From NCBI GenBank assembly GCA_024695415.1, contig JAILIE010000142.1, positions 4,847 through 68,846 of the forward strand: 64,000 nucleotides of DNA, given 5' to 3'. Shown one piece after another: positions 15,894-37,715 of the stretch (its first letter is position 1; each line of letters starts with the position of its first letter). Under the pieces are notes generated by a model. It was given only the letters and a program-made list of their open reading frames with translations. It ran no database searches and had not been told where the DNA came from. A program made the translations under genes and the position numbers. The stretch comes from Clostridiales bacterium. Lineage in GTDB: Bacteria > Bacillota > Clostridia > Christensenellales > Aristaeellaceae.

Positions 15894-15906
15894 CGGAGGC
15901 GACAGA

Positions 15907-17388: not shown

Positions 17389-17402
17389 AGAGTGGAGTTA
17401 TG

Positions 17403-17433
17403 ATATCTCCCGACTGCGCTCGGGATGACACCG
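17403..17433. repeat. REP-like palindromic half element (..GGATGACACCG)
   Basis: ATATCTCCCGACTGCGCTCGGGATGACACCG. Related copy at 23264-23293. Confidence 0.55.
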
Positions 17434-17518
17434 AAGAGGGCAGCGGAATCAGCTGCTGTGCCGGTGAGATACGGAAGGGTTTCAGAACAGACGAGAACGA
17501 AACGGGAGGAACGAAGTC

Positions 17519-18157
17519 ATGACGGAAATGATGCAGAAACTGAAAAAGATCGGAATTGTGCCGGTGGTGGTGCTGGACAGCGCGGAGGACGCGCTGCCCC
17601 TGGCGGAGCGCCTGATGAAGGGCGGGCTGCCCTGCGCGGAGGTGACCTTCCGGACAGCGGCGGCTGAGGAGTCCATCCGGCGGATGGCGAAGGCCTTCCC
17701 GGAAATGATTATCGGCGCGGGAACCGTTCTGACGACGGAGCAGGCGGACCGGGCGATCGACGCCGGCGCGACATTCATCGTCAGCCCCGGATTCAATCCG
17801 AAGGTCACGGAATACGTGCTGAAAAAGGGCGTGCCGATGACGCCCGGCGTATGCACGCCGACTGAGATCGAGGCGGCGCTGCAGTTTGACCTGGACGTGC
17901 TGAAGTTCTTCCCGGCGGAACCGGCGGGCGGACTGAAGATGATCAAGGCGCTGGCCGCGCCGTATGTGGGCGTGAATTTCATGCCGACGGGCGGCATCAG
18001 CGCGGCGAACGTGCGGGATTACCTGGCGTATGACCGGATCGTTGCCTGCGGCGGCAGCTGGATGGTCAGCGGCAAGCTGGTGAAGGAAGGCAGGTTCGAC
18101 GAAATCGAATCGCTGGTCAGGGAAGCCGCGGACATTGTGAAAGAGATCAGGGGGTAA
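17519..18157 (+). CDS. eda: KDPG/KHG aldolase
   Basis: AEVTFRT, IGAGTVL, FIVSPG, LKFFPA, FMPTGGI, GGSW. Confidence 0.95.
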   Translation: MTEMMQKLKKIGIVPVVVLDSAEDALPLAERLMKGGLPCAEVTFRTAAAEESIRRMAKAFPEMIIGAGTVLTTEQADRAIDAGATFIVSPGFNPKVTEYVLKKGVPMTPGVCTPTEIEAALQFDLDVLKFFPAEPAGGLKMIKALAAPYVGVNFMPTGGISAANVRDYLAYDRIVACGGSWMVSGKLVKEGRFDEIESLVREAADIVKEIRG

Positions 18158-18162
18158 GGAAA

Positions 18163-19260
18163 ATGGATCTGAATCTGAAACCGGCGGAAGCGTGCCGCTA
18201 TGACGCGGTATCCCTGGGTGAAATCATGCTGCGCCTGGATCCCGGCGAGGGCCGGATCCGGACCGCGCGGGAATTCAAGGTCTGGGAAGGCGGCGGCGAA
18301 TACAACGTGGTCCGGGGCCTGCATAAATGCTTTGGCCTGAGGACCGGTGTGCTGACCGCTTTCGCGGACAACGAGGTCGGCAAACTGCTGAAGGACCTGA
18401 TTGAGCAGGGAGGCGTGGACACCAGCCTGATCTGCTGGAAAAAGACGGACGGTATCGGCCGCGTCTGCCGGAACGGCCTGAACTTCACGGAGCGAGGCTT
18501 TGGCATTCGCGGCGCTGTCGGGTGCTCCGACCGCGCCAACACCGCCATCTCCAAGGCGACCCCGGAAGATTTTGACTTTGACAATGTTTTCGGCAAACTG
18601 GGCGTCCGGTGGCTGCATACCGGCGGAATCTACGCCGCGCTGTCCGAACAGAGCTGCGAGACCGTCATCGCCGCGTGCAAAACCGCGAAGAAATACGGTA
18701 CGCTGGTCTCCTATGACCTGAACTACCGGCCTTCCATGTGGTCCGCGATCGGCGGCCTGGAAAAAGCCCGTGAGGTCAACCGGGAAGTGGCCAGATATGT
18801 GGACGTCATGATCGGCAACGAAGAGGACTTCACCGCGTGCCTCGGCCTGCAGGTGGAAGGAAACGATGAAAACCTGAAGGAGCTGAACCTGGACGGATAC
18901 TACAAGATGATCGCGGAAGCGGCGAAGCAGTATCCTAATTTCAAGGCGATCGCCACTACGCTGCGGACCGTGAAAACGGCCACGGTGAACGACTGGAAAG
19001 CGATCTGCTGGGCGGACGGAAAGGTTTACATGTCCAAGGCGTTTGACGGCCTGGAAATCCTGGACCGCGTCGGCGGCGGAGACTCCTTTGCCTCCGGACT
19101 GGTTTACGGCCTGATGACCACCGGCGATCCGGAACTGGCCGTCAACTATGGCGCCGCCCACGGCGCGCTGGCGATGACCACGCCCGGTGACACCAGCATG
19201 GCCAGCAAGGAAGAAGTGGAAGCCATCATCAAGAACGGCAGCGCCCGGGTCAAGCGTTAA
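18163..19260 (+). CDS. kdgK: 2-keto-3-deoxygluconate kinase (PfkB family)
   Basis: LGEIMLRL, GGGEYNV, SYDLNYRPSMW, GNEED, DRVGGGDSF. Context supports the substrate. Confidence 0.85.
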   Translation: MDLNLKPAEACRYDAVSLGEIMLRLDPGEGRIRTAREFKVWEGGGEYNVVRGLHKCFGLRTGVLTAFADNEVGKLLKDLIEQGGVDTSLICWKKTDGIGRVCRNGLNFTERGFGIRGAVGCSDRANTAISKATPEDFDFDNVFGKLGVRWLHTGGIYAALSEQSCETVIAACKTAKKYGTLVSYDLNYRPSMWSAIGGLEKAREVNREVARYVDVMIGNEEDFTACLGLQVEGNDENLKELNLDGYYKMIAEAAKQYPNFKAIATTLRTVKTATVNDWKAICWADGKVYMSKAFDGLEILDRVGGGDSFASGLVYGLMTTGDPELAVNYGAAHGALAMTTPGDTSMASKEEVEAIIKNGSARVKR

Positions 19261-19293
19261 CCAGATCAGAATTGCATGTGAAGGAGAACGACG

Positions 19294-20709
19294 ATGAAAC
19301 AGTTTCTGGACAAAGATTTCCTGCTGAACACGGAAGCGGCGAAGAAGCTGTACCATGAGGCGGCGGAGAAACAGCCGATCATCGACTACCACTGCCACCT
19401 GAGCCCGCGGGAAATCTGGGAGGATATCCGCTATCAGAATATTACGCAGGTCTGGCTGGGCGGGGACCACTACAAGTGGCGCCTGATGCGCTCCGCCGGG
19501 GTGAACGAGAAGTATATCACCGGGGACGCGCCGGACTATGAGAAGTTCCTGAAGTATGCCGAAGTGCTCGGAAAGGCGGTCGGGAATCCGCTGTACCACT
19601 GGAGCCACCTGGAGCTGCGGCGGTTCTTCGGCTATGAGGGAATCCTGAACCGGGACACCGCGGACGAGGTATGGAAGCTGGCGAACGAAAAGCTGCAGAG
19701 CGAAGGCTATTCCGCGCGCGGGCTGATCATGATGAGCAATGTGGATACGATCTGCACGACGGACGACCCGGCGGACAGCCTGGAATGGCATGAAAAGCTG
19801 GCGGCGGACAAGACCTTCCCGGTGACCGTGCTGCCGGCGTGGCGGCCGGACAAGGCGATGAACCTGGAGAAGGTGACCTGGCCGAGCTATATTGCCCAGC
19901 TGGAGGAAGCCGCGGGGATGAAGATCGACTCCTTCGCGGGACTGAAGAAAGCGCTGAAGGCGCGGCTGGACTTTTTCGCGGCGCACGGGTGCAAGCTGAG
20001 CGACCACGCGCTGAACTATGTGGTTTACGCGCCGGCCGGCGCGGAGGAAGTCGAGGAGATCTTCCGCCGGCGGATGGAGGGAGAAATCCCGGACGCGGAC
20101 GCGGAAGCGAAGTTCAAGTACGCGTTCATGACCGCGATGGCGAAGGAATACCGGGAACGCGGATGGGTGATGCAGCTGCACTACGGATGCCGCCGGGACA
20201 ACAATCCGGTGACGTTCCGGAAGATGGGCCCGGATACCGGGTTCGACTGCGTGGACAACTACGCGCCCAGCGCCCAGACGGCGGCGTTCCTCGGCGCGCT
20301 GGAGGACGAGGGAGCCCTGCCGAAGACGATCCTGTACAGCCTGAACACGAACGACAACGCGGCGATTGACACGATCCTGGGATGCTTCCAGAACGACGAG
20401 GCCGTCGGAAAGATCCAGCACGGGTCCGCCTGGTGGTTCAACGACCACTTCGACGGGATGAGCGAACAGCTGAAGAGCCTGGGCGCGCTGGGATACCTGG
20501 CCGGGTTTGTGGGAATGCTGACGGACAGCCGGAGTTTCCTGAGCTATCCGAGGCATGAGTATTTCCGGAGGATCCTGTGCCGCATTCTCGGCGAATGGGT
20601 GGAGGAAGGATTCTATCCGGAGGATTACGATACGCTGAAGCAGATTGTGGCGGATATCAGTTACAACAACGCGAAGAATTATTTCGCGTTTGAGAAGAAG
20701 GAAGTTTAA
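19294..20709 (+). CDS. uxaC: Uronate isomerase
   Basis: PIIDYHCHL, GDHYKWRLMR, CTTDDP, AWWFND, TDSRSFLSYPRHEYFRR. Confidence 0.97.
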   Translation: MKQFLDKDFLLNTEAAKKLYHEAAEKQPIIDYHCHLSPREIWEDIRYQNITQVWLGGDHYKWRLMRSAGVNEKYITGDAPDYEKFLKYAEVLGKAVGNPLYHWSHLELRRFFGYEGILNRDTADEVWKLANEKLQSEGYSARGLIMMSNVDTICTTDDPADSLEWHEKLAADKTFPVTVLPAWRPDKAMNLEKVTWPSYIAQLEEAAGMKIDSFAGLKKALKARLDFFAAHGCKLSDHALNYVVYAPAGAEEVEEIFRRRMEGEIPDADAEAKFKYAFMTAMAKEYRERGWVMQLHYGCRRDNNPVTFRKMGPDTGFDCVDNYAPSAQTAAFLGALEDEGALPKTILYSLNTNDNAAIDTILGCFQNDEAVGKIQHGSAWWFNDHFDGMSEQLKSLGALGYLAGFVGMLTDSRSFLSYPRHEYFRRILCRILGEWVEEGFYPEDYDTLKQIVADISYNNAKNYFAFEKKEV

Positions 20710-24168: not shown

Positions 24169-24254
24169 GGGAAAGATCACTGTTTTGTCCATATGTTTTC
24201 CTTTTTTTTGCCTTTACGAAAACATACAAATTCATGTATAATAGATTATGATAA

Positions 24255-24902
24255 ATGGACAAAAACGCCAAGACAGCCGGAGGACGCACCGTGCAGACCC
24301 AAAGGAGCATCCAGCAATACCGCGCGATCGACCTGACCCTGTTCGCGGTGATCCTGACTGTATTTGAAACAGTGCTGATCCAGGCGGGGACGAAATGGTT
24401 CCCGCAGGAAGCCTGGATGGTATCAGTCACCCCGGTGATCACGGCAATCGTGATGATGCGGTGGGGTCCCTGGGCAGCAATCCACGCGGTACTCGGCGGC
24501 GCGGCACTGTGTTTCCTGACCGGCGCGGCGCAGACGAATCCCCGGATGATTCCCGTATACTGCATCGGGAACCTGGGAGGAATGGCCGGGCTGATCCTCC
24601 TGAAAAAGGCCGGGAGCGAAAAAATCCGCGGAAACGCTGTTCAGTCCATGCTCTTCGGCGGGGTGGTCCTGCTGGGAATGCTGGCCGGACGGGCGCTGGT
24701 ATCCCTGATTGTGATCCGGGATTTCGGCGCGTTGATCATGTATTTTACCCCCGAAGCGGTGACACTGCTCTTTACCCTGGTGCTGATGTGGGTCGTCCGG
24801 CGCCCCGACGGGCTGTTTGAAGACCAGAAGCACTATCTGAAACGCCTGAACCGACAGGCGGACAACCCCGGCGAACCGGAAGACGAAGGAGGACTCCGAT
24901 GA
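24255..24902 (+). CDS. Uncharacterised integral membrane protein (about 5-6 TM; ECF S-component-like pattern)
   Basis: Hydrophobic 215 aa with an MRWGPWAA motif. Stop overlaps the permease start (ATGA). Confidence 0.7.
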   Translation: MDKNAKTAGGRTVQTQRSIQQYRAIDLTLFAVILTVFETVLIQAGTKWFPQEAWMVSVTPVITAIVMMRWGPWAAIHAVLGGAALCFLTGAAQTNPRMIPVYCIGNLGGMAGLILLKKAGSEKIRGNAVQSMLFGGVVLLGMLAGRALVSLIVIRDFGALIMYFTPEAVTLLFTLVLMWVVRRPDGLFEDQKHYLKRLNRQADNPGEPEDEGGLR

Positions 24903-26005
24903 AAGTCAGAGGATCGGACTATCTGGTCTTTGACAAGGAAACCGGAACCTGGAAAGAGGATCCGGAACAGGCGGTCCGCGACGATGTGGAGAAACACTAC
25001 TGGAAAAACGTCGGCCGCGCGCTCCTGAAAGACTGGCGCCTGTACCTGATGCTGGTTCCGATGATCCTGGTGTTCCTGTTCTGGCGCTATATGCCGATGT
25101 ACGAACTGCTGCGATCCTTTAAGGTGGACGGCAGTGACGCGCAGCCGGTAGCGGAGTGGGCATGGAAGGGATTCGCGAACTTCCGCGCGCTGCTGATGGG
25201 TACCGGTGCGAACGCCACGCTGAGCCAGGACTTCTGGGCCGCTCTGCGGAACACGTTCCTGCTGAGCTTTTACGGATTGTGCTTCGGATTCCCGATGCCG
25301 ATCATCCTGGCATTGTTCTTTAATGAAATCCGGAGCAACGGGATGCGCAGCGTATTGCAAGTACTGACCTACCTGCCGAAGTTCATGTCGACGGTTATCA
25401 TGACGTCGCTGGTGGTTATGCTGGTCAAAGGCGCGACATCCGCCGGAGGACTGACGGCACCGCCCGGGGTGATCAGCCAGGCACTGACAAGCCTGGGACT
25501 GGTGCCGCAGGAAGCGGCGGACGCCGGCCTTCTGCGCAGCGCACAGTACTTTCGCGCGATCTACCAGGTGAGCGGCATCTGGGAGACAGCGGGCTATGAC
25601 AGCATCGTGTTCTTCGCAGCCATCATCGCGATTTCACCGACGAGCTATGAAGCGGCGCAGATCGACGGCGCCGGGAAATGGGCGCAGATGCGGTACGTGG
25701 TGCTGCCCAGCATCCTGAGCACGATCGTGATCATGCTGATCACCCGGATCGGATCGATGCTGAGCATAGGCTATGAGAAAGTGATCCTGCTGACCAACAA
25801 CCTGGCCAGGGACAACGGCGACGTGCTGACAACGGCCCAGGTGGTATCCACCTTTGCATGGTCGACTGCCCAGAGCGGCGGCAGCTCGAGCGGGCAACCC
25901 GGAATTGCCGCGGCGGCTGAAATGATGAACAATGTGGTCGGCATGCTGCTGGTGATCGGCGCAAATACCATCGCCCGCAAGGCGTCCAACGTGTCACTGT
26001 ACTGA
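24899..26005 (+). CDS. Carbohydrate ABC transporter permease (LplB/YteP-like)
   Basis: YLMLVP, NTFLLS, YLPKFMS, EAA loop YEAAQIDGAGKW. Confidence 0.92.
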   Translation: MKVRGSDYLVFDKETGTWKEDPEQAVRDDVEKHYWKNVGRALLKDWRLYLMLVPMILVFLFWRYMPMYELLRSFKVDGSDAQPVAEWAWKGFANFRALLMGTGANATLSQDFWAALRNTFLLSFYGLCFGFPMPIILALFFNEIRSNGMRSVLQVLTYLPKFMSTVIMTSLVVMLVKGATSAGGLTAPPGVISQALTSLGLVPQEAADAGLLRSAQYFRAIYQVSGIWETAGYDSIVFFAAIIAISPTSYEAAQIDGAGKWAQMRYVVLPSILSTIVIMLITRIGSMLSIGYEKVILLTNNLARDNGDVLTTAQVVSTFAWSTAQSGGSSSGQPGIAAAAEMMNNVVGMLLVIGANTIARKASNVSLY

Positions 26006-26018
26006 GGGAGGAGAGAAC

Positions 26019-26912
26019 GTGAAAAGAAAGCTCGAAATCTCCGAACTGATCTTCAGGATCATCAGCTACGTGCTGCTGACAGCGTTCGCGCTGTGCTGCC
26101 TGTACCCGTTCCTTTACGCGGTGTTCGCGTCCATCAGCGGAAGGCACGCCGTGGAATACAACGAGATTGTGCTTCTGCCCAAGGCCATCCAGTATGACGC
26201 GTTCATCTGGATGTTCCAGCAGGATACGTTCTGGAACAGCTACAGCAACACGCTGTTCCTGACAATCTACGGTACGGTCTGGTCACTGGTGATCTCGATT
26301 CTCGGTGCCTACGCACTGAGCAAGAAGCGGCTGAAATTCCGGAAATTCTTCAACTTCTTCCTGGTGTTCACGATGTGGTTCAGCGCCGGTATCGTACCCC
26401 AACGCCTGAATTACCTGGCAACGAAGAACATATTCCACTCGATCGGGATCATGGATGACAAGTGGATGGTAGTCATCGCCATGGGTATGGCGGCCATGAA
26501 CATCATCCTGCTGCGGAACGCGTTTGAGAACGTGCCGGGCGAGATTGAGGAAGCCGCGATCGTGGACGGCGCGACGGAATACCAGGTGCTGCGCCAGGTG
26601 TTCATTCCGATGAGCAAGAGCACAATCGCGACAGTGGCGCTGTTCTTCGCTATCAGCCGGTGGAACGGCTACTTCTGGGCAAAGGAAATGGTGACCAACA
26701 CCTGGGAAAAGCCGCTGCAGGTGTTTATCCGGACGAAGCTCGACGAGCTGGTGTATGATCCGGAAACCATCAATTACTGGAATAAACCCTATGCCACGGA
26801 TTCGGTTATTTACGCGCTGATCGTCTGCTCGATTATTCCGATACTGATTATTTATCCGTTTATTCAGAAGTACTTCGCCAAAGGCGCTAACGCCGGCGGT
26901 GTGAAGGAATAA
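26019..26912 (+). CDS. Carbohydrate ABC transporter permease (LplC/YtcP-like)
   Basis: EEAAIVDGA, LFFAISRWN, YPFIQKYF, GGVKE C-terminus. GTG start with GGAGG RBS. Confidence 0.92.
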   Translation: MKRKLEISELIFRIISYVLLTAFALCCLYPFLYAVFASISGRHAVEYNEIVLLPKAIQYDAFIWMFQQDTFWNSYSNTLFLTIYGTVWSLVISILGAYALSKKRLKFRKFFNFFLVFTMWFSAGIVPQRLNYLATKNIFHSIGIMDDKWMVVIAMGMAAMNIILLRNAFENVPGEIEEAAIVDGATEYQVLRQVFIPMSKSTIATVALFFAISRWNGYFWAKEMVTNTWEKPLQVFIRTKLDELVYDPETINYWNKPYATDSVIYALIVCSIIPILIIYPFIQKYFAKGANAGGVKE

Positions 26913-26943
26913 AAGAAACAATTTTGTTAAGGAGGATGACCCC

Positions 26944-28983
26944 ATGAAAAAGTTCCTGTCTCTGGTTCTGGCGCTGGCACTGCTGCTGACGCTGGCTGGC
27001 AGCGCGCTGGCGGCTGATTATGCCGAAGGCACCACGCTGCGGATGGCGGTTGGTTACAACTCCGCCAAAACCGGCATTGTCTTTGACGCGGAAGTCGCGG
27101 GCGAAGGCGTGACCCTGGCGGACGGCGTGACCTACACAGCCGGAAGCCTGAAGCCCACCTGGGTTGCTTTGGAAGAGATCCTCGGCGTGAAGTTCGAGAG
27201 TAAGTACCAGGGCAACTCCGCGAAGGATGAGTTCGCGTACTGGAAAGACCAGCTGGCCGAGGTCGACATGGTGAGCGGCACCGCTTCCCTGCTGAGCGAG
27301 AACGGTCCTGACCTGCTGATCAACCTGGCTGAGTACCTGGACGTGATGCCCAACTTCAAGGCCTACCTGGAAGCAAATCCGATTGTCCGGCTGTCCATTA
27401 CGGGCGACACCGAAACCGGCGCGATCTACTTCAGCCCCTACTTTGACGGTGTCAACGACATCGAACGGATGCCCCTGATGCGTGTCGACTGGGTGACCAA
27501 GCTGCTGGACGGCGAAGGCGCGTTTGCCGCGGACGCGAGCAACGAGACCGCTGAACCCGTGTATCAGCCCTACATGCCCACCGAAGGCAAGGTCGTAATC
27601 GACGTAGTGACCCTGGATGGCACCGCTGTTGAGACCATTGCCAAGGACTATGACGCCGCCGGCAACATCGTCGCGAAGATGAACGCCGCCGGAAAGATGA
27701 GCGGTGTGGAAGCCGTGAACATGCTGCGGACCTACATCGACGAAGCCTATAACGGATACTACGGCACCGAGCGCTCCAACCTGTTTATCGGCCAGAATGC
27801 CGCGTGGGACGCGGATGAACTGGTTGCCCTGCTGCGCTGCGTCGTGGCCAACCCCCAGACCCTGAACGGCACGGAACAGGTTGAAGGCCTGTTCAGCCGG
27901 GAAGACAACAACAACCAGCGCCGGATCGACCTGTTCCGGTTCGCCGGCCACCTGTTCGGTATCCGCGGCCTCGAATCCCGTCAGGATTACCTGTACGTCG
28001 GCACGGACGGAAACCTGCATGACGCCCGCCAGGAAGCTGTCGCTTATGAAGCGATGGGCTACATGAACGCCATGGCGCAGGAAGGCCTGATTGCCGCTTC
28101 CTTCATCAATGGTGAAGAGCTGAGTTCCAGCAAGTACCTGGAGAACGACGCCGGTTTCATGAGCTATGACTACAACCAGACCCAGACCGCCCTGAACGCC
28201 ACCAAGCTTCAGAACGAAGAGGGCGAGAAGTACATGGCTGTGATGGTTCCCGTTGCCAAGTGGTATGACGGCACCGAAGGCGGCGTATTCATGCGGTTTA
28301 CCGAGAGCTGGCGCTCCGTAAAGACCGACGGCTGGGCTATCTCCAAGGCCGGTGTCGCGGGAAACGATGACAAGCTGAATGCCGCCCTGGCCCTGATCGA
28401 CTATGCCTACTCCGAAGAAGGCCAGATCCTGATGAGCTACGGTCCGAAGGCTTTCATCAAGGAAGGCGAAACCTTCCTGTTCAACGGCAAGGAAATGCCC
28501 GTGATCGCGGACGCGACCTATGAAGAACTGTGGAAGCTGACCGGCGGCAACTACACCAACTACGCGCGGCAGTACCTGGGCTCCACCCTGAGCTTCGCGA
28601 AGAGCCAGGCCTTCGAGTACCAGTGCACGCACGAGATCGGCAAGGAAGGCGCGGGCAGGATCTCCACGGCTATTGGCCTGGGCACGATCAAGCATCCTGA
28701 GCTGGCACTGACCGAGAATCCCTGGTACACCTCCGTTCCCACCGTGCTGCCTACCACCGCTGACGAGAAGAAAGAACTGAGCACCTACAAGGATCTGAGT
28801 GACGCCTTCTCCTCCACCAAGGGCGGCGATAACGGCTTCGTGAACGCGATCGTGAACGGCATCGGCGACGGTGCGGAAACGCTGGCTGAAAAGGTTGAGA
28901 TCGATATGTCCGGCGACCTGTACCTGGAAGTCAAGAACGCCGAATGGGTCCGCATCCAGGATTACTACAAATCCCTGCAGTAA
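26944..28983 (+). CDS. Large extracellular solute-binding protein (oligogalacturonide candidate)
   Basis: Signal peptide ending ALA-A with no lipobox Cys. LxEYLDxMPN, GAIYxxP, RxDW and GWAISK motifs typical of cluster B/D SBPs. Strong codon bias. Confidence 0.85.
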   Translation: MKKFLSLVLALALLLTLAGSALAADYAEGTTLRMAVGYNSAKTGIVFDAEVAGEGVTLADGVTYTAGSLKPTWVALEEILGVKFESKYQGNSAKDEFAYWKDQLAEVDMVSGTASLLSENGPDLLINLAEYLDVMPNFKAYLEANPIVRLSITGDTETGAIYFSPYFDGVNDIERMPLMRVDWVTKLLDGEGAFAADASNETAEPVYQPYMPTEGKVVIDVVTLDGTAVETIAKDYDAAGNIVAKMNAAGKMSGVEAVNMLRTYIDEAYNGYYGTERSNLFIGQNAAWDADELVALLRCVVANPQTLNGTEQVEGLFSREDNNNQRRIDLFRFAGHLFGIRGLESRQDYLYVGTDGNLHDARQEAVAYEAMGYMNAMAQEGLIAASFINGEELSSSKYLENDAGFMSYDYNQTQTALNATKLQNEEGEKYMAVMVPVAKWYDGTEGGVFMRFTESWRSVKTDGWAISKAGVAGNDDKLNAALALIDYAYSEEGQILMSYGPKAFIKEGETFLFNGKEMPVIADATYEELWKLTGGNYTNYARQYLGSTLSFAKSQAFEYQCTHEIGKEGAGRISTAIGLGTIKHPELALTENPWYTSVPTVLPTTADEKKELSTYKDLSDAFSSTKGGDNGFVNAIVNGIGDGAETLAEKVEIDMSGDLYLEVKNAEWVRIQDYYKSLQ

Positions 28984-29020
28984 TCCCGCGCAAAGCGAAT
29001 ACTGAACGGTAAGCAACGAT

Positions 29021-29054
29021 TCCCTCTGCCCGGCCGAAAGGCCGGGCAGAGGGA
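29021..29054 (+). promoter_or_regulatory. Perfect 15-bp stem-loop after the SBP gene (mRNA stabiliser or partial terminator)
   Basis: TCCCTCTGCCCGGCC-GAAA-GGCCGGGCAGAGGGA, no U-tract. Confidence 0.75.
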
Positions 29055-29084
29055 GATGCCTGACGAGGAAGGGACGATAAAATC

Positions 29085-29681
29085 ATGTACAAGAAGCAAA
29101 TGGCTCTGCAGAGAGCCCTGTGCATCCTGGTGGTGGCCGCGAGCGCACTGGTGTTTGTATACGCGCTGGGCTACATGACCGATGTATACGACATGATTTA
29201 TTCGCTGCGCGAAAGCTACAAGACGGATGAGATCAAGGCATTCCTGGAGGATATGGACCAGTTCAATGGAACGCTGGTGCGTGTCGGGATTGGCCTGATC
29301 CTTTGTTCACTGACCCTTCTCCTGACAAACACCCACACCCGCCGGAAATATTACATCGGCAATTACGCAGCCACCGGGCTGAATGTTTGCGCCGCGACGG
29401 CTGTTTCCGTCTGGGCGCACAGCAATATTTCCGCGTTCAAGGCGCGGTATTTTTCCGGGATCATCGACTTTGAAGTGGTGAAAAACTGGGCGGACCGGAC
29501 CGCCCGCAACGGCGGAATCAGCGTATATACTGATTCCACTTTCTGGTTTGATGTACACTGGTTTGTTTTCGGCCTGCTGCTCGCGGCGGCAGTGCTTCTG
29601 ATTTTGAACACAATATGGAAGATACTGCTCATGAGGGATGAGAGCAGGGCGCTTGCGACAGGAAAGGCGGTGTCCGCATGA
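29085..29681 (+). CDS. Uncharacterised 4-TM membrane protein
   Basis: Four hydrophobic segments. Overlaps the next gene (ATGA). Confidence 0.8.
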   Translation: MYKKQMALQRALCILVVAASALVFVYALGYMTDVYDMIYSLRESYKTDEIKAFLEDMDQFNGTLVRVGIGLILCSLTLLLTNTHTRRKYYIGNYAATGLNVCAATAVSVWAHSNISAFKARYFSGIIDFEVVKNWADRTARNGGISVYTDSTFWFDVHWFVFGLLLAAAVLLILNTIWKILLMRDESRALATGKAVSA

Positions 29682-30214
29682 ACGAGGAGCTGACGATCAG
29701 GCAGGACCGGATGAGATTCACCAAGAACACCGCGTCCTCGAGGCTTGCCTTGCTTGCCATCGTGTTCAATGTATTCTTCTTTATCAGCATATATAAGGTC
29801 AACCAGCAGGCGTACTACACCTGGTGGATGGGCGTATCCATCATCTACAACCTGGTATTTATGCTGGCCGCTTTCCTGGCCAGCGAAGGCGCGAAGAATT
29901 ACAAGCAGAGCTTTTCCACGCTGATGATCGTCCTGGGCATTGGCCAGATCGCCCGGATCTTCCTGCTGCCGACGGCGATGCACAGCCGCCTGGTGAACGA
30001 GGCGGTGCCGGTTCTGGAGGAGGAAATCCACTTTCTTGGATACCACATTCCCGTAACAGTGGATAACGTGGTGATGTCCAGCGCACAGTATATCCGGGTG
30101 ATTCTGTACCTGGGACTGTCGGCTGTGTGCCTGATTGCCGGCGCGGTGATCAACCGGCGCAAGAGCAAGGCGCTGGCGGCGCACATCGCCAATCTCAGCC
30201 TGCACCAGGCGTAA
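29678..30214 (+). CDS. Uncharacterised 4-TM membrane protein
   Basis: Four hydrophobic segments. Translationally coupled to the upstream gene. Confidence 0.8.
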   Translation: MNEELTIRQDRMRFTKNTASSRLALLAIVFNVFFFISIYKVNQQAYYTWWMGVSIIYNLVFMLAAFLASEGAKNYKQSFSTLMIVLGIGQIARIFLLPTAMHSRLVNEAVPVLEEEIHFLGYHIPVTVDNVVMSSAQYIRVILYLGLSAVCLIAGAVINRRKSKALAAHIANLSLHQA

Positions 30215-30226
30215 GGAGGAAACGGA

Positions 30227-31303
30227 ATGGCGGAGCTTTCCCTGCAGCATCTGGATAAAATATACGACAATAACGTGCAGGCCGTATACGATTTCAACAT
30301 GGATGTAAAAGACGGTGAGCTGATCGTCCTGGTCGGCCCCAGCGGATGCGGCAAGAGCACGACGCTGCGGATGGTGGCCGGGCTGGAGGATATCTCCCGC
30401 GGACATCTTTTCCTGAACGGGCGGGATATTACCCAGACACCGGCGAAGGACCGGGATATGGCGATGGTTTTCCAGAACTACGCGCTGTATGCCCATATGA
30501 CGATTTATGAAAACATGGCGTTCAGCCTGACCCTGCGGAAGGAAGACAAGAACGTTATCCATAAAAAAGTGATGGCGGCGGCTGAAATCCTGGACCTAAC
30601 GGCCCAGCTGAACAAGAAGCCCGCGCAGCTTTCCGGCGGCCAGCGGCAGCGCGTGGCCATGGGACGGTCGATCGTGCGGAACCCCAGCGTATTCCTTTTT
30701 GACGAGCCGCTGAGCAACCTGGACGCGAAGCTGCGCGGGGCGACACGGCGCGAAATCCTTCTGCTGCATAAGCGGCTGGGCGCGACCATGCTGTATGTGA
30801 CGCACGACCAGACCGAGGCGCTGACGCTGGCGGACCGGATCGTATGCATGAGCATGGGCCATGTGCAGCAAATCGGTACCCCGATGGAACTGTACGATAA
30901 GCCGGCAAATACATTTGTGGCCGGTTTCATCGGCCTCCCTCCGATGAATTTTTACCATGTACGCTGTGCGGACGGCATGCTGAAAGGTGAAGGATATGAG
31001 GTCCCGCTGACAGAAGAAGAGAAGGCCCTGCTGGCGGCGTACCGGAACCGGGAGATCATCCTGGGTGTCCGCCCGGAGGATATGACCGAGGGCGGGACGA
31101 TCCCGGTCGCGGTAACGAACAACGAAAACCTGGGAATGAATACGCTGGTGCATGGATATATCGCGGGTATTCACGGGATGGGTATCGTGGCCAAAATTCG
31201 GGGCTGGAAGGATTACCATGCCGGGGACGGCGTGAAGGTCGCGTTTGCGCGGAAACACTTCTTCGACCCGGAAACCACCGACGCAATCCGAGGGGAGGAG
31301 TGA
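30227..31303 (+). CDS. Sugar ABC transporter ATP-binding protein (MsmX/UgpC-like), copy 1
   Basis: GPSGCGKS, FQNYALY, LSGGQRQR, DEPLSNLD, VTHDQ. Confidence 0.95.
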   Translation: MAELSLQHLDKIYDNNVQAVYDFNMDVKDGELIVLVGPSGCGKSTTLRMVAGLEDISRGHLFLNGRDITQTPAKDRDMAMVFQNYALYAHMTIYENMAFSLTLRKEDKNVIHKKVMAAAEILDLTAQLNKKPAQLSGGQRQRVAMGRSIVRNPSVFLFDEPLSNLDAKLRGATRREILLLHKRLGATMLYVTHDQTEALTLADRIVCMSMGHVQQIGTPMELYDKPANTFVAGFIGLPPMNFYHVRCADGMLKGEGYEVPLTEEEKALLAAYRNREIILGVRPEDMTEGGTIPVAVTNNENLGMNTLVHGYIAGIHGMGIVAKIRGWKDYHAGDGVKVAFARKHFFDPETTDAIRGEE

Positions 31304-31836
31304 AGGAAATGCCGGAGATTATCCGTAAATTCTTCGTGGCGCTCAAGCGCAAACCGCAGACGATTGCACTGGTGTCTGTAGCGGCGGCGTTCATCTGGTA
31401 TTCCTTCAACCTGACGGTAATATCCTTCACTACAACCCGGCTGCAGGGGAACAATATGGGCCTGACCGCCTTCGCGATCATGCTGCTCTCCACGCTGGCC
31501 ATCGTATGCTGCATGAACGCCTTTCCTTACCGTAAAAAGGTGAACAAGCCAATGCTGGCGCTGCTGTTTCTGATGCTGGGTATCATCCTGTTCTGCGATT
31601 TCCACTATATGAACTGCATCGCGAACAAGATTGCCGGCGGAACCATCAACACGGAAAACCTGCCTGAGGTGCTTCAGGCGAACAGGATTATGGTGGTTCA
31701 TGTCATCCTGGTGTGCGTAAGCGTGGCCCTGGTGGCGCTGCTGCCGGTTTACCGGAAGCTGATCCGGAAGATCAGGACCTCCGTTGAGGTGGAAGGCAAC
31801 GCTGAAATGGAAGCCATCGACATCAGCGGCGAGTGA
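31300..31836 (+). CDS. Uncharacterised 4-TM membrane protein
   Basis: GGAGGAG RBS, GTGA overlap with the ATPase stop (ATG 31309 is an alternative start). Four hydrophobic segments. Confidence 0.8.
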   Translation: MKEMPEIIRKFFVALKRKPQTIALVSVAAAFIWYSFNLTVISFTTTRLQGNNMGLTAFAIMLLSTLAIVCCMNAFPYRKKVNKPMLALLFLMLGIILFCDFHYMNCIANKIAGGTINTENLPEVLQANRIMVVHVILVCVSVALVALLPVYRKLIRKIRTSVEVEGNAEMEAIDISGE

Positions 31837-31843
31837 GTGCGGC

Positions 31844-32467
31844 ATGGCAAAGAAGAAACAGCCGCGGGACGCGGACAAGGCCGCCGCGGAGTATTATGAG
31901 CTGAAAACGGACGCGGTAGACAGCCTGATTAACGCGAACGTGACGAATGCCCCGGAAGTATCCGAAAAGGAACTGAAAAAATACCGGCGAAAAAGCATCC
32001 TGAATCTGCCCGAAGGACTGAAATACTTTCTGGTTAAGGCGTGGTTCGCGGGGGTCATCTGCTGGTTTTTTGTGATCGGACTGGGCAGCCTCGGGCTGTC
32101 CGCGCTGGATATGATCGCGATCCTCGGTATCGTGACCGGCCTGGTCTGGGACCTGCCGGTAAATATCTTTATCCGCATGAAAGCGGAAGAAAAGGAATAC
32201 GGCCGCTGGATGATGTTCCCGAAGACGGGAGTCGCGGCAGGCGCGATGAACGCGCTGTACGGAATTGTACTGATTTTCCTGGTCGTGGAGACCTACGCGC
32301 TCGGCAACCGGATTCTTTTCCATACCGGAAGCGAAACGGCACTGTCGGTGGAGCCGATTCTGTACGGATTGTTTACCGCCGGGTGGGACTGGGTCCTGCT
32401 GAGGTTCAGGAAACTGGGGAACAGCATCCTGGCTGATGCGAAGAAAAGCGCGGCCGGACAAAAATGA
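31844..32467 (+). CDS. Uncharacterised membrane protein (charged N-terminus + about 4 TM)
   Basis: MAKKKQPRD...YYELKTDAVDSL then hydrophobic segments. Fills the operon gap. Confidence 0.75.
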   Translation: MAKKKQPRDADKAAAEYYELKTDAVDSLINANVTNAPEVSEKELKKYRRKSILNLPEGLKYFLVKAWFAGVICWFFVIGLGSLGLSALDMIAILGIVTGLVWDLPVNIFIRMKAEEKEYGRWMMFPKTGVAAGAMNALYGIVLIFLVVETYALGNRILFHTGSETALSVEPILYGLFTAGWDWVLLRFRKLGNSILADAKKSAAGQK

Positions 32468-32474
32468 GGACAGC

Positions 32475-33602
32475 ATGCACGAGAAGATTGAACGGTACAT
32501 CCTGGAGCTGATCCGGCGCAGCACGCCGCGACAGACCGCCTGGAACATGGAAAAGATCCGGGCGGGTGAGCCCGTGAAATGGAACTACATCGACGGGTGC
32601 ATGCTGGGTGCGCTGGTGAAGATGACCGAGATCACCGGAGACGACCGTTACTTCGCCTTTACCCGGGAAGTGGCCGACTGCTTCGTGCAGGAGGACGGCA
32701 GCATCCTGACGTTTGAAACGGACAAGCACGCGCTGGACGACTACAACGAGGGACGCATCCTTTTCCCCGTATACGCCGCGACCGGAGATGAAAAATACCG
32801 GAAGGCCGCGGATATGCTGTACCGCAGCCTGAAGGAGCAACCGCGGACGGCGGAAGGGAACTTCTGGCACAAGCTGATCTATCCGAACCAGGTGTGGCTG
32901 GATGGGACCTATATGGCGCTGCCGTTCCTGGCTATGTATGAAAAAACCTTTGGAAAAGGGGATTGCGCCGACATCATCCGGCAGCTGCGCGTGGTGCGCG
33001 ACCGGATGCGGGATCCGGAAACGGGGCTGTACTACCACGGATATGACGCAAGCCGGAAGGCGTTCTGGGCGGATCCGGAAACGGGACTGAGCCGGAACTT
33101 CTGGCTGCGGGCGATCGGATGGTTCTCCCTGGCACTGGCGGACCTGGCGGAGATCCTGCCGGAAGACGCGCCGGACCGGGAGGAAATCGCCGAAATGTTC
33201 CGGGATCTGATGGAGAGCGTTGTGAAGTACGCGGATCCGGAGACCGGTATGTACTGGCAGGTTATGGACCAGGCAGGGCGGGAAGGTAATTATCCCGAAA
33301 CCAGCGGCAGCTCCATGATCGCCTGCGCGATGCTGAAGGGGGCCCGGCTGGGCGTGCTGGACGGCACGTTCCGGGACCGGGGACGGAAAACGTTCGAAGG
33401 CATCCTGCGCGGACACCTGAAGGCGGACGGCGATCTGCTGGAACTGAACAACATCTGCCTGGTGGCCGGTCTCGGGCCGGAGAATAACCGCCGCCGGGAC
33501 GGGAGCTACGAATACTACATTTCCGAACCGGTGGTCAGCAACGACGCCAAGGGCGCGGCGCCTTTTGTGCTGTGCTATACGGAGATCCGGCAGGCGGAAT
33601 AA
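32475..33602 (+). CDS. GH105 unsaturated rhamnogalacturonyl/galacturonyl hydrolase (YteR/YesR-like)
   Basis: WNYIDG, NFWHK, QVWLDGTYM, GLYYHG, FWLRAIGW, ETSGS, RDGSYEYY. Confidence 0.92.
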   Translation: MHEKIERYILELIRRSTPRQTAWNMEKIRAGEPVKWNYIDGCMLGALVKMTEITGDDRYFAFTREVADCFVQEDGSILTFETDKHALDDYNEGRILFPVYAATGDEKYRKAADMLYRSLKEQPRTAEGNFWHKLIYPNQVWLDGTYMALPFLAMYEKTFGKGDCADIIRQLRVVRDRMRDPETGLYYHGYDASRKAFWADPETGLSRNFWLRAIGWFSLALADLAEILPEDAPDREEIAEMFRDLMESVVKYADPETGMYWQVMDQAGREGNYPETSGSSMIACAMLKGARLGVLDGTFRDRGRKTFEGILRGHLKADGDLLELNNICLVAGLGPENNRRRDGSYEYYISEPVVSNDAKGAAPFVLCYTEIRQAE

Positions 33603-33641
33603 GCCGGGAAAGCAATCGAACCTGCGAGGAGGCAGCAGCCG

Positions 33642-34718
33642 ATGTATATCACGCTGAAGGACATCAACAAGATTTATCCCAACGGATTCCACGCGGTGCA
33701 CAACTTCAACCTGGAAATCGAGAAGGGTGAGTTTGTGGTTTTCGTCGGTCCCTCCGGCTGCGGGAAATCCACGACACTGCGGATGATCGCCGGGCTGGAG
33801 AACATCTCCAGCGGCGAGTTCCTGATCAACGGTGAGCGAGCGAACGAAAAAGGCCCCCGGGAACGGGAAGTGGCGATGGTTTTCCAGAGCTATGCCCTGT
33901 ATCCCCAGATGACCGTGTTTGACAACATTGCTTTCGGCCTGACCCTGCAGGGCGTGGACGAGGACGCGATCGAGGAACGCGTGAAGAAGACCGCGCAGAT
34001 CCTGGGCCTGACGGATTACCTGGACCGGCTGCCGCGGGCGCTCTCCGGCGGCCAGCGCCAGCGCGTTGCGATCGGCCGGGCGATTATCCGGAAAGTCGGC
34101 ATCTTCCTGATGGACGAACCGCTGAGCAACCTGGACGCGAAACAGCGGGTGACCATGCGCAGCGAAATCGCCCAGATTCACCAGGAAACCGGCGCGACCA
34201 CGATTTATGTGACCCACGACCAGACGGAAGCTATGACCCTGGCGGACCGGATCGTGGTGATGAAGGACGGGTACATCCAGCAGACCGGTACGCCGCGGGA
34301 GCTGTACTTCCACCCCGTGAACGTGTTTGTTGCCGGATTCATCGGCGAACCGCCGATGAACTTCGTACGCCAGACGGTGGCAAACGGCCGGATCCGCTTC
34401 GGCAGCCAGGAGATCGACCTCGGGAAGCGGCTGAAGAACATCGCCGACTGGGAAGGAAAAGAAATCGTATTCGGCTTCCGTCCGGAAGCTGTTCAGCTGG
34501 CAGGGGCAGCGGAAGGCTATACACTGACCGGCAATGTCGAACTGACCGAGATGCTGGGCGACAACACGAACGTGTATATCAAGGCCGGAGAGCAGAACGT
34601 AATCCTGAAGGTGGACAGCCACGACACGCCGGAAACCGACGTGAACCTTACGTTCCATGTTCCCTTCGAGAGCGTATATCTTTTTGACGGAGAAACGGAA
34701 AAGGTTATCGAAAACTGA
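33642..34718 (+). CDS. Sugar ABC transporter ATP-binding protein, copy 2
   Basis: GPSGCGKS, FQSYALYP, LSGGQRQR, DEPLSNLD, VTHDQ. Confidence 0.95.
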   Translation: MYITLKDINKIYPNGFHAVHNFNLEIEKGEFVVFVGPSGCGKSTTLRMIAGLENISSGEFLINGERANEKGPREREVAMVFQSYALYPQMTVFDNIAFGLTLQGVDEDAIEERVKKTAQILGLTDYLDRLPRALSGGQRQRVAIGRAIIRKVGIFLMDEPLSNLDAKQRVTMRSEIAQIHQETGATTIYVTHDQTEAMTLADRIVVMKDGYIQQTGTPRELYFHPVNVFVAGFIGEPPMNFVRQTVANGRIRFGSQEIDLGKRLKNIADWEGKEIVFGFRPEAVQLAGAAEGYTLTGNVELTEMLGDNTNVYIKAGEQNVILKVDSHDTPETDVNLTFHVPFESVYLFDGETEKVIEN

Positions 34719-35666: not shown

Positions 35667-36653
35667 ATGATTACAGTATCGAAAGACGGGCACGGGGATT
35701 TTACCCGTATTCAGGACGCGGTGGATGCCGCTGCCGCGCCGGAGCGGATCCTGATCCGCCCGGGAGAATACCGGGAGCGGATTATCGTGGACCGGGACGG
35801 ACTGACCCTGGCCGGGGAAGACCGTGACGCAACCGTGATCGTATGGAACGGCTGCGCGAAGGATCTGTATCCGGACGGAACAGAGAAGGGGACCTTCCTG
35901 TCCGCCACGGTGTTCATTACCGGACGGGACGTGACGCTGGAGAACCTGACGGTGGAGAACGACGCGGGGGACGGGCGCGCGGTGGGCCAGGCGGTGGCGG
36001 TGTACGCCGCGGGGGACCGCGGGGTTTTCCGGAACTGCAGCCTGAAAGCGCATCAGGATACGCTGTTCTGCGGCCCGGTGCGGCTGCCGAACACGGCGGA
36101 AGCCATCGGCGGGCGAACCGGAAACGCGGAGAAGTGCTTCCGGGTCGAGGACGGGCCGGAAACACACAGCCGCCTGTACTTTGAGGACTGCCTGATCCGG
36201 GGGGACGTGGATTTCATCTTCGGCCCCTACCGCTGCTGGTTTGAGAACTGCGGGCTGTTTATGAACGAACGCGGCGGATGGTATACCGCGGCAAACACGA
36301 ACGCGGCGCAGGAACACGGAATGGTGTTCCACCGCTGCCGCCTGACCGGGGAGTGCGAACCCGGCACCGGATACCTGGGACGGCCGTGGCGCAAAGGCGC
36401 GCGGACCGTATTCCTGGAATGTGAGATGGATGAGCATGTGGCTCCGGAAGGCTTTCAGGACTGGGACGCGGAACGCGTGGTGACCGCACGGTGCGGTGAA
36501 TGGCGGACAAAAGGCGTCCGGGCGAACCAGGAACCCCGGCATCCGGCCCAGAAACGGATGACCGATGAGGAAGCCGGACGCATTACAACGGAAACCGTTC
36601 TGGGCGGGGCGGACGGCTGGCGGCCGGACCTCGGACCGACAAGGGGGAAATGA
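35667..36653 (+). CDS. Pectin methylesterase (CE8), no signal peptide
   Basis: GDFTRIQDAV, PGEYRE, QAVAV, QDTL, DFIFG, YLGRPW. Confidence 0.92.
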   Translation: MITVSKDGHGDFTRIQDAVDAAAAPERILIRPGEYRERIIVDRDGLTLAGEDRDATVIVWNGCAKDLYPDGTEKGTFLSATVFITGRDVTLENLTVENDAGDGRAVGQAVAVYAAGDRGVFRNCSLKAHQDTLFCGPVRLPNTAEAIGGRTGNAEKCFRVEDGPETHSRLYFEDCLIRGDVDFIFGPYRCWFENCGLFMNERGGWYTAANTNAAQEHGMVFHRCRLTGECEPGTGYLGRPWRKGARTVFLECEMDEHVAPEGFQDWDAERVVTARCGEWRTKGVRANQEPRHPAQKRMTDEEAGRITTETVLGGADGWRPDLGPTRGK

Positions 36654-37715
36654 ATGTATACCAGGGAACAGCTGGAACGCTTCCCGTATTTCGCGGAGAG
36701 GCTGGGGGAAAACGACGACGTGTCCGGAATGCTGGATCAGCTGACGGGCCTGGTTTCCCGCGGGCATATCCTGTGGTTCGCCCAGTGGCTGATCGAACGG
36801 GAAATCCCCTTTTCCTTCGCGATGATGGACCTGGATAACTTCAAGTTCGTCAACGACACCTACGGACACCATGTCGGCGACGAGGTGCTGATCCATGTGG
36901 CGGACGACCTGGCGGCATACCTGGGGGAAAAGGGCGTCGCGGGGCGGTTCGGCGGGGACGAGATGCTGATTGTGAACCTGGAGGACGTGACATACGACGC
37001 GGCGAAGGCGCTTTTTATCGGGATGTATGACGGAAAGGTGCTGCGGAAAAATATCCGACTGGAGGACTGCAACCCTTTCATCACGGCCACGGTCGGATGC
37101 GCCTGTTTCCCGAAGGACGCGCAGGACTACAACCACCTTTTTGAGCTGATCGACAAAACGCTGTACCGAGGAAAGTCCAAGGGACGGAACTGCCATATCA
37201 TCTACGTGGAGGAAAAACATAAGGATATCCAGATCCGGCAGATCGCGAAGCACGGAATGTATACCACATTCAGCGGGATCGTCCGCCAGTATGAATTCGC
37301 GCCGGGCCTGGTGAACAAACTGCGAGGCGTGATGCCCCTCCTGATGGAGGAACTGCAGATCACAGACCTGTACTACGTCGGCAGCAAGGGAATCATGAGA
37401 TCAGTGCGCAACACGATGCCGGACGTGCCGGTCAGCGGGCTGGACAAGCTGCTTCGCAGCGACGACCTGTATTCAAACAACACGCTGGCGGACGTGGAGA
37501 AACGGAGCCCGGCATTCTATGAGGTGCTGAAGGCAAGGGAAGTGGAGACGCTCTGCGTGGTCCGGATCGGAATGGACATGCAAACGTTCGGATACCTGAT
37601 CTGCGCGGAGGCACGGAACCGGCGGATCTGGCAGGAGGCGGAATGCGCGATTCTGTTTTTCCTGACGAAAATGATCGCAGGGACCATCCTGATCAATGGG
37701 GAAGAACTGGAATAA
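36654..37715 (+). CDS. Cytoplasmic GGDEF protein with C-terminal GAF-like region
   Basis: DQLTGL, DLDNFKFVNDTYGH, RFGGDEM. C-terminal FGYLICAE...RIWQEAE looks GAF-like. Confidence 0.85.
   Translation: MYTREQLERFPYFAERLGENDDVSGMLDQLTGLVSRGHILWFAQWLIEREIPFSFAMMDLDNFKFVNDTYGHHVGDEVLIHVADDLAAYLGEKGVAGRFGGDEMLIVNLEDVTYDAAKALFIGMYDGKVLRKNIRLEDCNPFITATVGCACFPKDAQDYNHLFELIDKTLYRGKSKGRNCHIIYVEEKHKDIQIRQIAKHGMYTTFSGIVRQYEFAPGLVNKLRGVMPLLMEELQITDLYYVGSKGIMRSVRNTMPDVPVSGLDKLLRSDDLYSNNTLADVEKRSPAFYEVLKAREVETLCVVRIGMDMQTFGYLICAEARNRRIWQEAECAILFFLTKMIAGTILINGEELE

Follow-up and report, generated by a model that had tools for sequence, protein, structure and literature searches.

A sugar importer operon that also encodes five small membrane proteins was analysed in a DNA stretch of 64,000 nucleotides (nt) from a Clostridiales bacterium (GTDB family Aristaeellaceae; GenBank assembly GCA_024695415.1, contig JAILIE010000142.1, positions 4,847 to 68,846 of the forward strand). 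This whole stretch is called the window, and coordinates given without a locus label refer to it. The importer core comprises two ATP-binding cassette (ABC) permeases, P1 and P2, a substrate-binding protein (SBP) and two ATPases, K1 and K2. The five further proteins, designated A to E, occurred as a fixed set with this core, and A had the fold of an S-component of energy-coupling factor (ECF) transporters. The best overall explanation, which we hold with moderate confidence, is that A to E work with a type I importer of uronate oligosaccharides, most likely as extra membrane subunits.

Eleven open reading frames (ORFs), all on the plus strand, made up a single co-directional operon in the order A-P1-P2-SBP-hairpin-B-C-K1-D-E-GH105-K2. 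The inventory drawn up in the initial annotation, with two permeases, an SBP of 679 amino acids (aa), two ATPases, a GH105 hydrolase and five membrane proteins with predicted transmembrane (TM) helices, was recovered completely:

24255..24902, + strand: A, membrane protein of 215 aa and ECF S-component fold; opens the operon, with a stop codon that overlaps the P1 start
24899..26005, + strand: P1, LplB/UgpA-like type I ABC permease, 368 aa; BPD_transp_1 (PF00528) at 8.7e-9, 35.8 bits against a cut-off of 26.4
26019..26912, + strand: P2, LplC/UgpE/MalG-like type I ABC permease, 297 aa; BPD_transp_1 at 7.3e-11, 42.6 bits against a cut-off of 26.4, with UgpE and MalG matches
26944..28983, + strand: SBP, secreted binding protein, 679 aa, distantly AlgQ1-like; AxA-type signal peptide without a lipobox Cys
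29085..29681, + strand: B, 198 aa, four predicted TM helices, N terminus inside; invariant RRxYY motif in a cytoplasmic loop
29678..30214, + strand: C, 178-aa protein with four TM helices; its start overlaps the stop of B
30227..31303, + strand: K1, UgpC/MalK-type ATPase between C and D; NF008653 at 2.7e-131, 437.8 bits against a cut-off of 432; ABC_tran and OB_MalK
31300..31836, + strand: D, 178-aa bundle of four TM helices; its GTG start overlaps the stop of K1
31844..32467, + strand: E, 207 aa, four TM helices after a conserved cytoplasmic N-terminal domain of 57 aa
32436..33602, + strand: GH88/GH105-type unsaturated uronyl hydrolase, 388 aa, cytoplasmic; Glyco_hydro_88 at 5.3e-88
33642..34718, + strand: K2, second UgpC/MalK-type ATPase; ABC_tran, OB_MalK and TOBE_2

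The co-occurrence of A to E with the importer was followed in both directions. Using the SBP as bait, 80 loci from 80 species were recovered, and 13 more came from whole-genome searches. In both sets the order A-P1-P2-SBP-B-C-K-D-E, referred to as the cassette, was kept wherever the contig allowed, and in the SBP-bait loci each of A to E was detected by tblastn at 31-73% identity in every sufficiently long locus. Genes for GH28 and/or GH105, followed by K2, were usually located 3' of this core; the GH28 gene lies upstream of the operon in the window and inside it at many of the other loci. For the reverse test, whole genomes sampled from the same order, most of them metagenome-assembled genomes (MAGs), were searched with profiles. 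E was found in 15 of 401 genomes and A in 14 of 401, D gave strong hits (E ≤ 4e-20) in 12 of 401, and B and C were found in 6 and 4 of 151 genomes, respectively. All hits of E, and all strong hits of the other four, were in the cassette. The 20 kb around each E hit were examined, and the hit coordinates of A, B, C and D fell in the same stretches. The remaining D matches were weak and partial and were located inside long unrelated ORFs. Across 400 genomes sampled phylum-wide, B gave three marginal matches (E 0.003-0.007) outside G000 and no others. The strict co-occurrence that the initial annotation had expected was thus observed both from the SBP and from the five genes, and a functional link of A to E to the importer is therefore well supported.

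Of about 185,000 species genomes scanned, at least 288 contained the cassette; most were gut and rumen Clostridia, and genomes labelled Anaerolineaceae were also among them. The nearest relatives of the locus, of rumen and gut origin, were labelled Clostridia or Clostridiales. Five loci (L020, L035, L050, L069 and L071), from MAGs labelled Anaerolineaceae, Flexilinea, Leptolinea or Chloroflexi, carried the cassette with SBPs of about 70% identity. In the tree, K1 of L020 nested among Clostridia sequences, and these occurrences are due either to lateral transfer or to mis-binning.

A to E are genuine genes subject to purifying selection, far beyond chance ORFs and conserved as proteins in more than 90 loci, and all five were predicted to be polytopic membrane proteins. 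Rough ratios of non-synonymous to synonymous substitution rates (dN/dS) against the closest relative were 0.13-0.41 for A to E and 0.09-0.19 for the core genes, with dS near saturation. Each of the five was single-copy in the host genome, which is a MAG of 2.16 Mb and 80% complete. Pfam and NCBIfam searches returned nothing consistent for A to E, and profile searches against PDB sequences returned nothing for B to E and, for A, a weak match over 57 columns to EMC subunit 4 (E 0.004). The initial annotation had made its proposal subject to the five genes not belonging to known unrelated families, and no Pfam, NCBIfam or PDB sequence family matched them. YesL/DUF624 (PF04854) was not matched by the single sequences of A to E at E ≤ 0.01, nor, at E ≤ 0.1, by any sequence in the alignments of A and of C. 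Paralogy among A to E was ruled out by blastp and by hhalign comparison of the profile pairs B/D, C/E, C/D and B/E. In the sources the proteins were named 'hypothetical protein', and the ESM Atlas likewise returned 'hypothetical protein' clusters only for D and the B-C fusion. Among 1.84 billion representatives, clustering at 50% identity gave only 438 clusters for the E family.

Protein A was modelled with confidence. Its AlphaFold2 (AF2) model, with a predicted local distance difference test score (pLDDT) of 88.9 and a predicted template modelling score (pTM) of 0.84, showed the six-helix fold of S-components, which have about 160-200 residues. In a VIA search the model matched ECF S-components over the whole chain, with Z 13-14, a root mean square deviation of 3.1-3.6 Å and 160-176 aligned residues. 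The top 19 chains were all S-components (HmpT/FolT, PanT, ThiT, RibU, BioY, NikM, CbiM and BtuM), and the next match had Z 7.2; the top 15 Foldseek matches were S-components likewise. At the sequence level no known S-component family of Pfam or NCBIfam was detected in any of the 34 A members at E ≤ 0.1, and profile searches with A returned no S-component of the PDB. No EcfT or EcfA gene was found inside the cassette. An AxxxA docking motif in helix 1 is putative, seen in the A consensus by eye. The residues D26, R69, G105, G145 and R/K146 were retained in every variant, including the most distant, and the C terminus formed a conserved amphipathic tail, GxxEDQxxYxxR. R69 and R/K146 are basic residues in predicted membrane helices, and as a hypothesis only they may handle carboxylates of the substrate. 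An apparent A-P1 fusion in L010 contained an in-frame stop and was rejected as an ORF-extension artefact. A search for longer proteins containing A gave one dubious match of 415 aa on a 1.4-kb contig.

Proteins B to E were each predicted, from alignment-averaged hydropathy and charge, to have four helices with both termini inside. Their near-invariant residues sit in the helices (many Asn, Asp, Arg, Gln and His) and in the cytoplasmic loops, which in B, C and D are just 1-6 residues long. The outside loops of C, D and E were variable, and lineage-specific inserts of 80-226 residues were present in the predicted outside loop of C in one genome and of D in two (L003:12768-13679; L018:14512-15282; L019:14390-15586). 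B and C formed a single uninterrupted ORF in L025, and B-C fusions were represented by at least 13 clusters at the 90% identity level, with 341-357 residues and 39-88% identity to one another. Because they are fused in other genomes, B and C are regarded as one eight-helix unit. For D and E, a chain of L002 obtained by reading through the stop codon was modelled as two helical bundles (pLDDT 86.4, pTM 0.70), a result that is no measure of the D-E interface. D of L002 was a plain up-down four-helix bundle, and fold searches with it returned generic four-helix bundles only. Some candidate relationships were discarded. For C, acyltransferase 3 (PF01757) was matched by only 2 of 37 members, and the 24.2 bits fell short of the cut-off of 31; this was regarded as a chance match. 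A long E in L043 contained an in-frame stop and was another ORF-extension artefact. P0272, a protein of 379 aa on a 1.7-kb contig, joins the C family to an SBP fragment and is probably a chimeric assembly.

The three stop/start overlaps of 4 nt noted in the initial annotation, at 24899, 29678 and 31300, were present. In other species the A/P1 overlap was found in 44 of 71 loci and the B/C overlap in 54 of 74, while the K1/D overlap was rarer (13 of 70 loci, median gap 3 nt). The K1/D and D/E gaps were mostly below 10 nt across species.

More distant variants of the cassette were also recovered. L090 and L091, with SBPs 36-38% identical, retained all nine core genes, with K2 relocated upstream of A in L090. 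In L092 and L093, where the SBP was 28-30% identical, the order was A-P1-P2-S-B-C-K-(161-aa ORF)-E with a single ATPase. In several variants, K2 was missing from the 20 kb retrieved. L092 was flanked by genes for DUF4962, heparinase II/III-like and alginate-lyase-like proteins, an SDR and an IclR regulator. From these polysaccharide-lyase-like and IclR flanks, the cassette family appears to serve differing uronate-containing glycans.

The core itself had the hallmarks of the type I CUT1 class (TC 3.A.1.1), namely two BPD_transp_1 (EAA-loop) permeases and a MalK/UgpC-type ATPase with a C-terminal OB/TOBE domain. P1 was 67-85% identical across close loci. The SBP matched no Pfam SBP family, and its sole sequence relative in the PDB was the alginate-binding protein AlgQ1, a weak match (E 1.8e-4) over residues 329-504. 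The N-termini of most SBPs (26944-27030 in the window; L002-L081) were AxA-type without a lipobox Cys, as in the window; in other orthologues a classical L-x-G-C lipobox preceded a long linker of low complexity. K1 and K2 were 48% identical and both had OB/TOBE tails, and Walker A, LSGGQ, Walker B and the H-switch were readable in both. In a quick tree the ATPases fell into four separate, well-supported clades, namely K1, K2, the K of the distant single-ATPase variants and the other MsmX-like ATPases of the genome, with K2 as a separate and old clade. In the clade of the window K1 and K2 probably form a heterodimer. Further MsmX-like genes were present elsewhere in the host genome. The true start of the GH105-type hydrolase is possibly the ATG at 32475. 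In L004 the GH105 and K2 genes formed one uninterrupted ORF of 731 aa (15581-17776), and in L025 K2 had a C-terminal extension of about 300 residues (17374-19368); both could be real fusions or assembly errors.

The three other LplB/LplC-type permease pairs of the genome (L111:3516-5576(-), L112:7281-9008(-), L113:8639-10165(+) and L113:10178-12025(+)) carried extensions of 200-400 residues N-terminal to BPD_transp_1, one of which holds about seven extra TM helices. Similarity of these extensions to A to E was not detectable. In this lineage, sugar permeases with additional membrane modules may be a common feature.

Upstream of the operon the window encodes GH28, KduI and KduD; downstream follow a convergent gene for an AraC regulator and then one for a CE8 pectinesterase. 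These flanks identify the region as a pectin-utilisation locus. The CE8 gene is directly followed by a GGDEF diguanylate cyclase gene (35667-37715), and both Pfam domains were confirmed. Two non-coding features were located in the operon:

24213..24242, + strand: promoter-like site TTTACG, 18-nt spacer, TATAAT, ending 12 nt 5' of the start of A; from a consensus scan only
29020..29055, + strand: perfect 16-bp G+C-rich hairpin with a GAAA loop and without a U-tract, directly 3' of the SBP gene

The promoter-consensus scan gave no more matches than were obtained with shuffled sequences. No Shine-Dalgarno sequence was visible upstream of A (24213-24255), and orthologues of A begin about 12 codons further downstream. 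The mRNA from which A is translated may be nearly leaderless, or the true start of A may be located further downstream. The hairpin had a folding energy of -49 kcal/mol (z -6.5), and none of 200 shuffled sequences folded as well. It divides the operon into A-P1-P2-S and B-C-K1-D-E-GH105-K2, and the spacer between the SBP gene and B had a median length of 114 nt in 77 loci. The hairpin probably serves in mRNA stabilisation or processing and thereby increases the output of the SBP relative to that of the downstream genes.

In the reading that we prefer, P1, P2, the SBP and K make up a binding-protein-dependent type I CUT1 importer resembling LplABC and AlgM1M2SS. Judged from the gene context, its substrates would be uronate-containing oligosaccharides and, in the window, pectin fragments, which would be cleaved in the cytoplasm by GH105, with the participation of the in-operon GH28 at many other loci, and then passed to KduI/KduD. 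A to E would be packed around P1/P2 and touch the ATPase side, and A would bind a carboxylate-bearing substrate or product within the plane of the membrane. Cooperation of A to E with the importer is suggested by the intramembrane and cytoplasmic position of the conserved residues, the location of the ATPase gene between C and D, and translational coupling. The physical association of A to E with the importer is what we infer from these data. Of the proposal in the initial annotation that the extra proteins are stoichiometric accessory subunits of a larger uptake complex, the functional link stood, owing to the co-occurrence, while membership of one complex is still conjectural, none of the five having been found fused to a permease, to the SBP or to an ATPase.

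Two of the roles suggested there have become less attractive. Docking of the SBP is weakened by the variable, insert-bearing outside loops of C, D and E and by the retention of B to E where the SBP has a normal lipobox; the pattern of conservation, together with the placement of the ATPase gene between C and D, speaks instead for contacts inside the membrane and at the cytoplasmic face. A scaffold for a heterodimeric ATPase cannot be the general role, since the variants with a single ATPase retain B, C, E and an ORF in the position of D. Several observations weigh against A to E being subunits at all. No fusion of any of them to P1, P2, the SBP or K was found. L095, a locus from the same genus as the window (G594), resembled L092 and L093, but A was not detectable, and D was too diverged for detection in the distant variants. 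Three further LplB-type permease systems of the host genome, related to this importer, work without A to E. EcfT genes were present in every genome tested, namely elsewhere in the host genome and in five other cassette-bearing genomes, all labelled Anaerolineaceae, so that A could be part of a normal ECF module. A separate translocation path would also fit the many conserved polar residues within the helices of B to E. A stronger version of the preferred reading is a hybrid ABC importer in which A, B·C and D·E are integral to the type I binding-protein-dependent machine and the basic residues of A handle the uronate carboxylates; this version is tentative, and we regard it as rather doubtful.

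The S-component fold of A, of which the initial annotation made no use, opens other readings. In one of them, two machines are encoded in one operon, a normal importer of P1, P2 and the SBP and a second, ECF-like translocator of A, B·C, D·E and K, in which two eight-helix units replace EcfT and A acts as a toppling carrier, for example of uronate monomers or unsaturated dimers. Such an arrangement agrees with the S-component fold of A, the polar helices of B to E and the presence of two ATPases in this clade, and also with the order B-C-K-D-E, which sets an ATPase between the two eight-helix units, the existence of B-C fusions, and the hairpin that splits the operon just 5' of B. However, A is encoded across this hairpin and is translationally coupled to P1 rather than to B to E, and K1 and K2 are of the MalK/UgpC type and not of the EcfA type. 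In B, C and D, the loops on the cytoplasmic side are too short to hold coupling helices, no transporter fold similar to D was found, and the variant without detectable A retains B, C and E. Two machines are considered unlikely. The EcfT genes elsewhere in the host and in the five Anaerolineaceae-labelled carriers, together with a fold match that spans the whole S-component, would also suit another case, in which A is an ordinary group II S-component that uses the shared EcfAA'T of the genome to import a small solute for uronate catabolism, and B to E are unrelated small membrane proteins. This case likewise has a low probability in our estimation, as A matches no S-component sequence family, is confined to the cassette among the 401 genomes, co-diverges with it and overlaps the start of P1 in most species. 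To our knowledge, the substrates of ECF transporters are vitamins, metals and precursors, not sugars.

A role outside transport was judged the least probable. B to E, and perhaps A, would then be anchoring, assembly or signalling factors, such as a tether for the non-lipidated SBP or a flux sensor for the nearby AraC and cyclic-di-GMP regulators. The missing lipobox Cys in the SBPs of the window and of most orthologues and the adjacent AraC and GGDEF genes are compatible with this, and a 2024 paper (PMC11109136) describes reuse of the S-component fold as a sensor domain in receptors; term searches in that paper gave no match for sugar importers. Nevertheless, B to E were unchanged where the SBP has a classical lipobox, and their outside loops were the least conserved parts. 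In addition, the regulators varied (AraC in the window, IclR in L092) while A to E stayed, and an output domain was absent.

In textbooks, type I ABC importers have four parts, and ECF transporters count as a class of their own. In the cassette a type I importer is permanently combined with an S-component-fold protein and with four unnamed families of membrane proteins. Should A to E be subunits, ABC importers would draw on a broader set of components than has been described, with one building block common to both classes. If the hybrid importer exists, it would contain the first S-component outside an ECF module and would be the first sugar importer with about 22 additional TM helices. The five protein families would gain a first functional context. 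The question also bears on the uptake of pectin and other uronate glycans by abundant uncultured fibre degraders, a process poorly known in Gram-positive gut bacteria.

Among the known systems, the AlgM1M2SS importer of Sphingomonas sp. A1 with AlgQ1/AlgQ2 for alginate resembles the window in its two BPD_transp_1 permeases, MalK-type ATPase, oversized binding protein and acidic uronate-type substrate, the last inferred from context for the window. The AlgM1M2SS/AlgQ system is known to have four polypeptide types only, whereas the cassette has five further fixed membrane proteins and, in this clade, a second ATPase. The SBP of the window is also about 180 residues longer than AlgQ1, and the similarity is marginal. 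The firmicute CUT1 importers LplABC, YtcQP-YteP and YesOPQ likewise combine LplB/LplC-like permeases with a large SBP in a pectin or rhamnogalacturonan context. Of the systems compared, the LplABC/YesOPQ type and the alginate importer come nearest to the core in kind. Importers of this firmicute type are served by MsmX, and their accessory membrane protein YesL (DUF624) is a precedent for a sugar ABC operon that includes an uncharacterised membrane protein. The cassette, however, has five extra proteins instead of one, without a DUF624 match, and its operon encodes ATPases of its own in place of a shared MsmX. ECF S-components (ThiT, RibU, PanT, FolT, BioY, NikM/CbiM and the solitary BtuM) are similar to A in size and helix count, but A is encoded with a type I importer and not with EcfT/EcfA, and in an oligosaccharide rather than a micronutrient context. 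TogMNAB of Dickeya, a CUT1 importer that takes up oligogalacturonides, has in common with the cassette the class of substrate predicted and the connection to catabolism through KduI/KduD. It has four components (PMC13543919). Accessory membrane proteins are not known for it. No published description of the cassette was found in literature searches or in the 2026 review of glycoside transporters (PMC13543919). The cassette with its five extra membrane proteins points to an undescribed, more elaborate importer.

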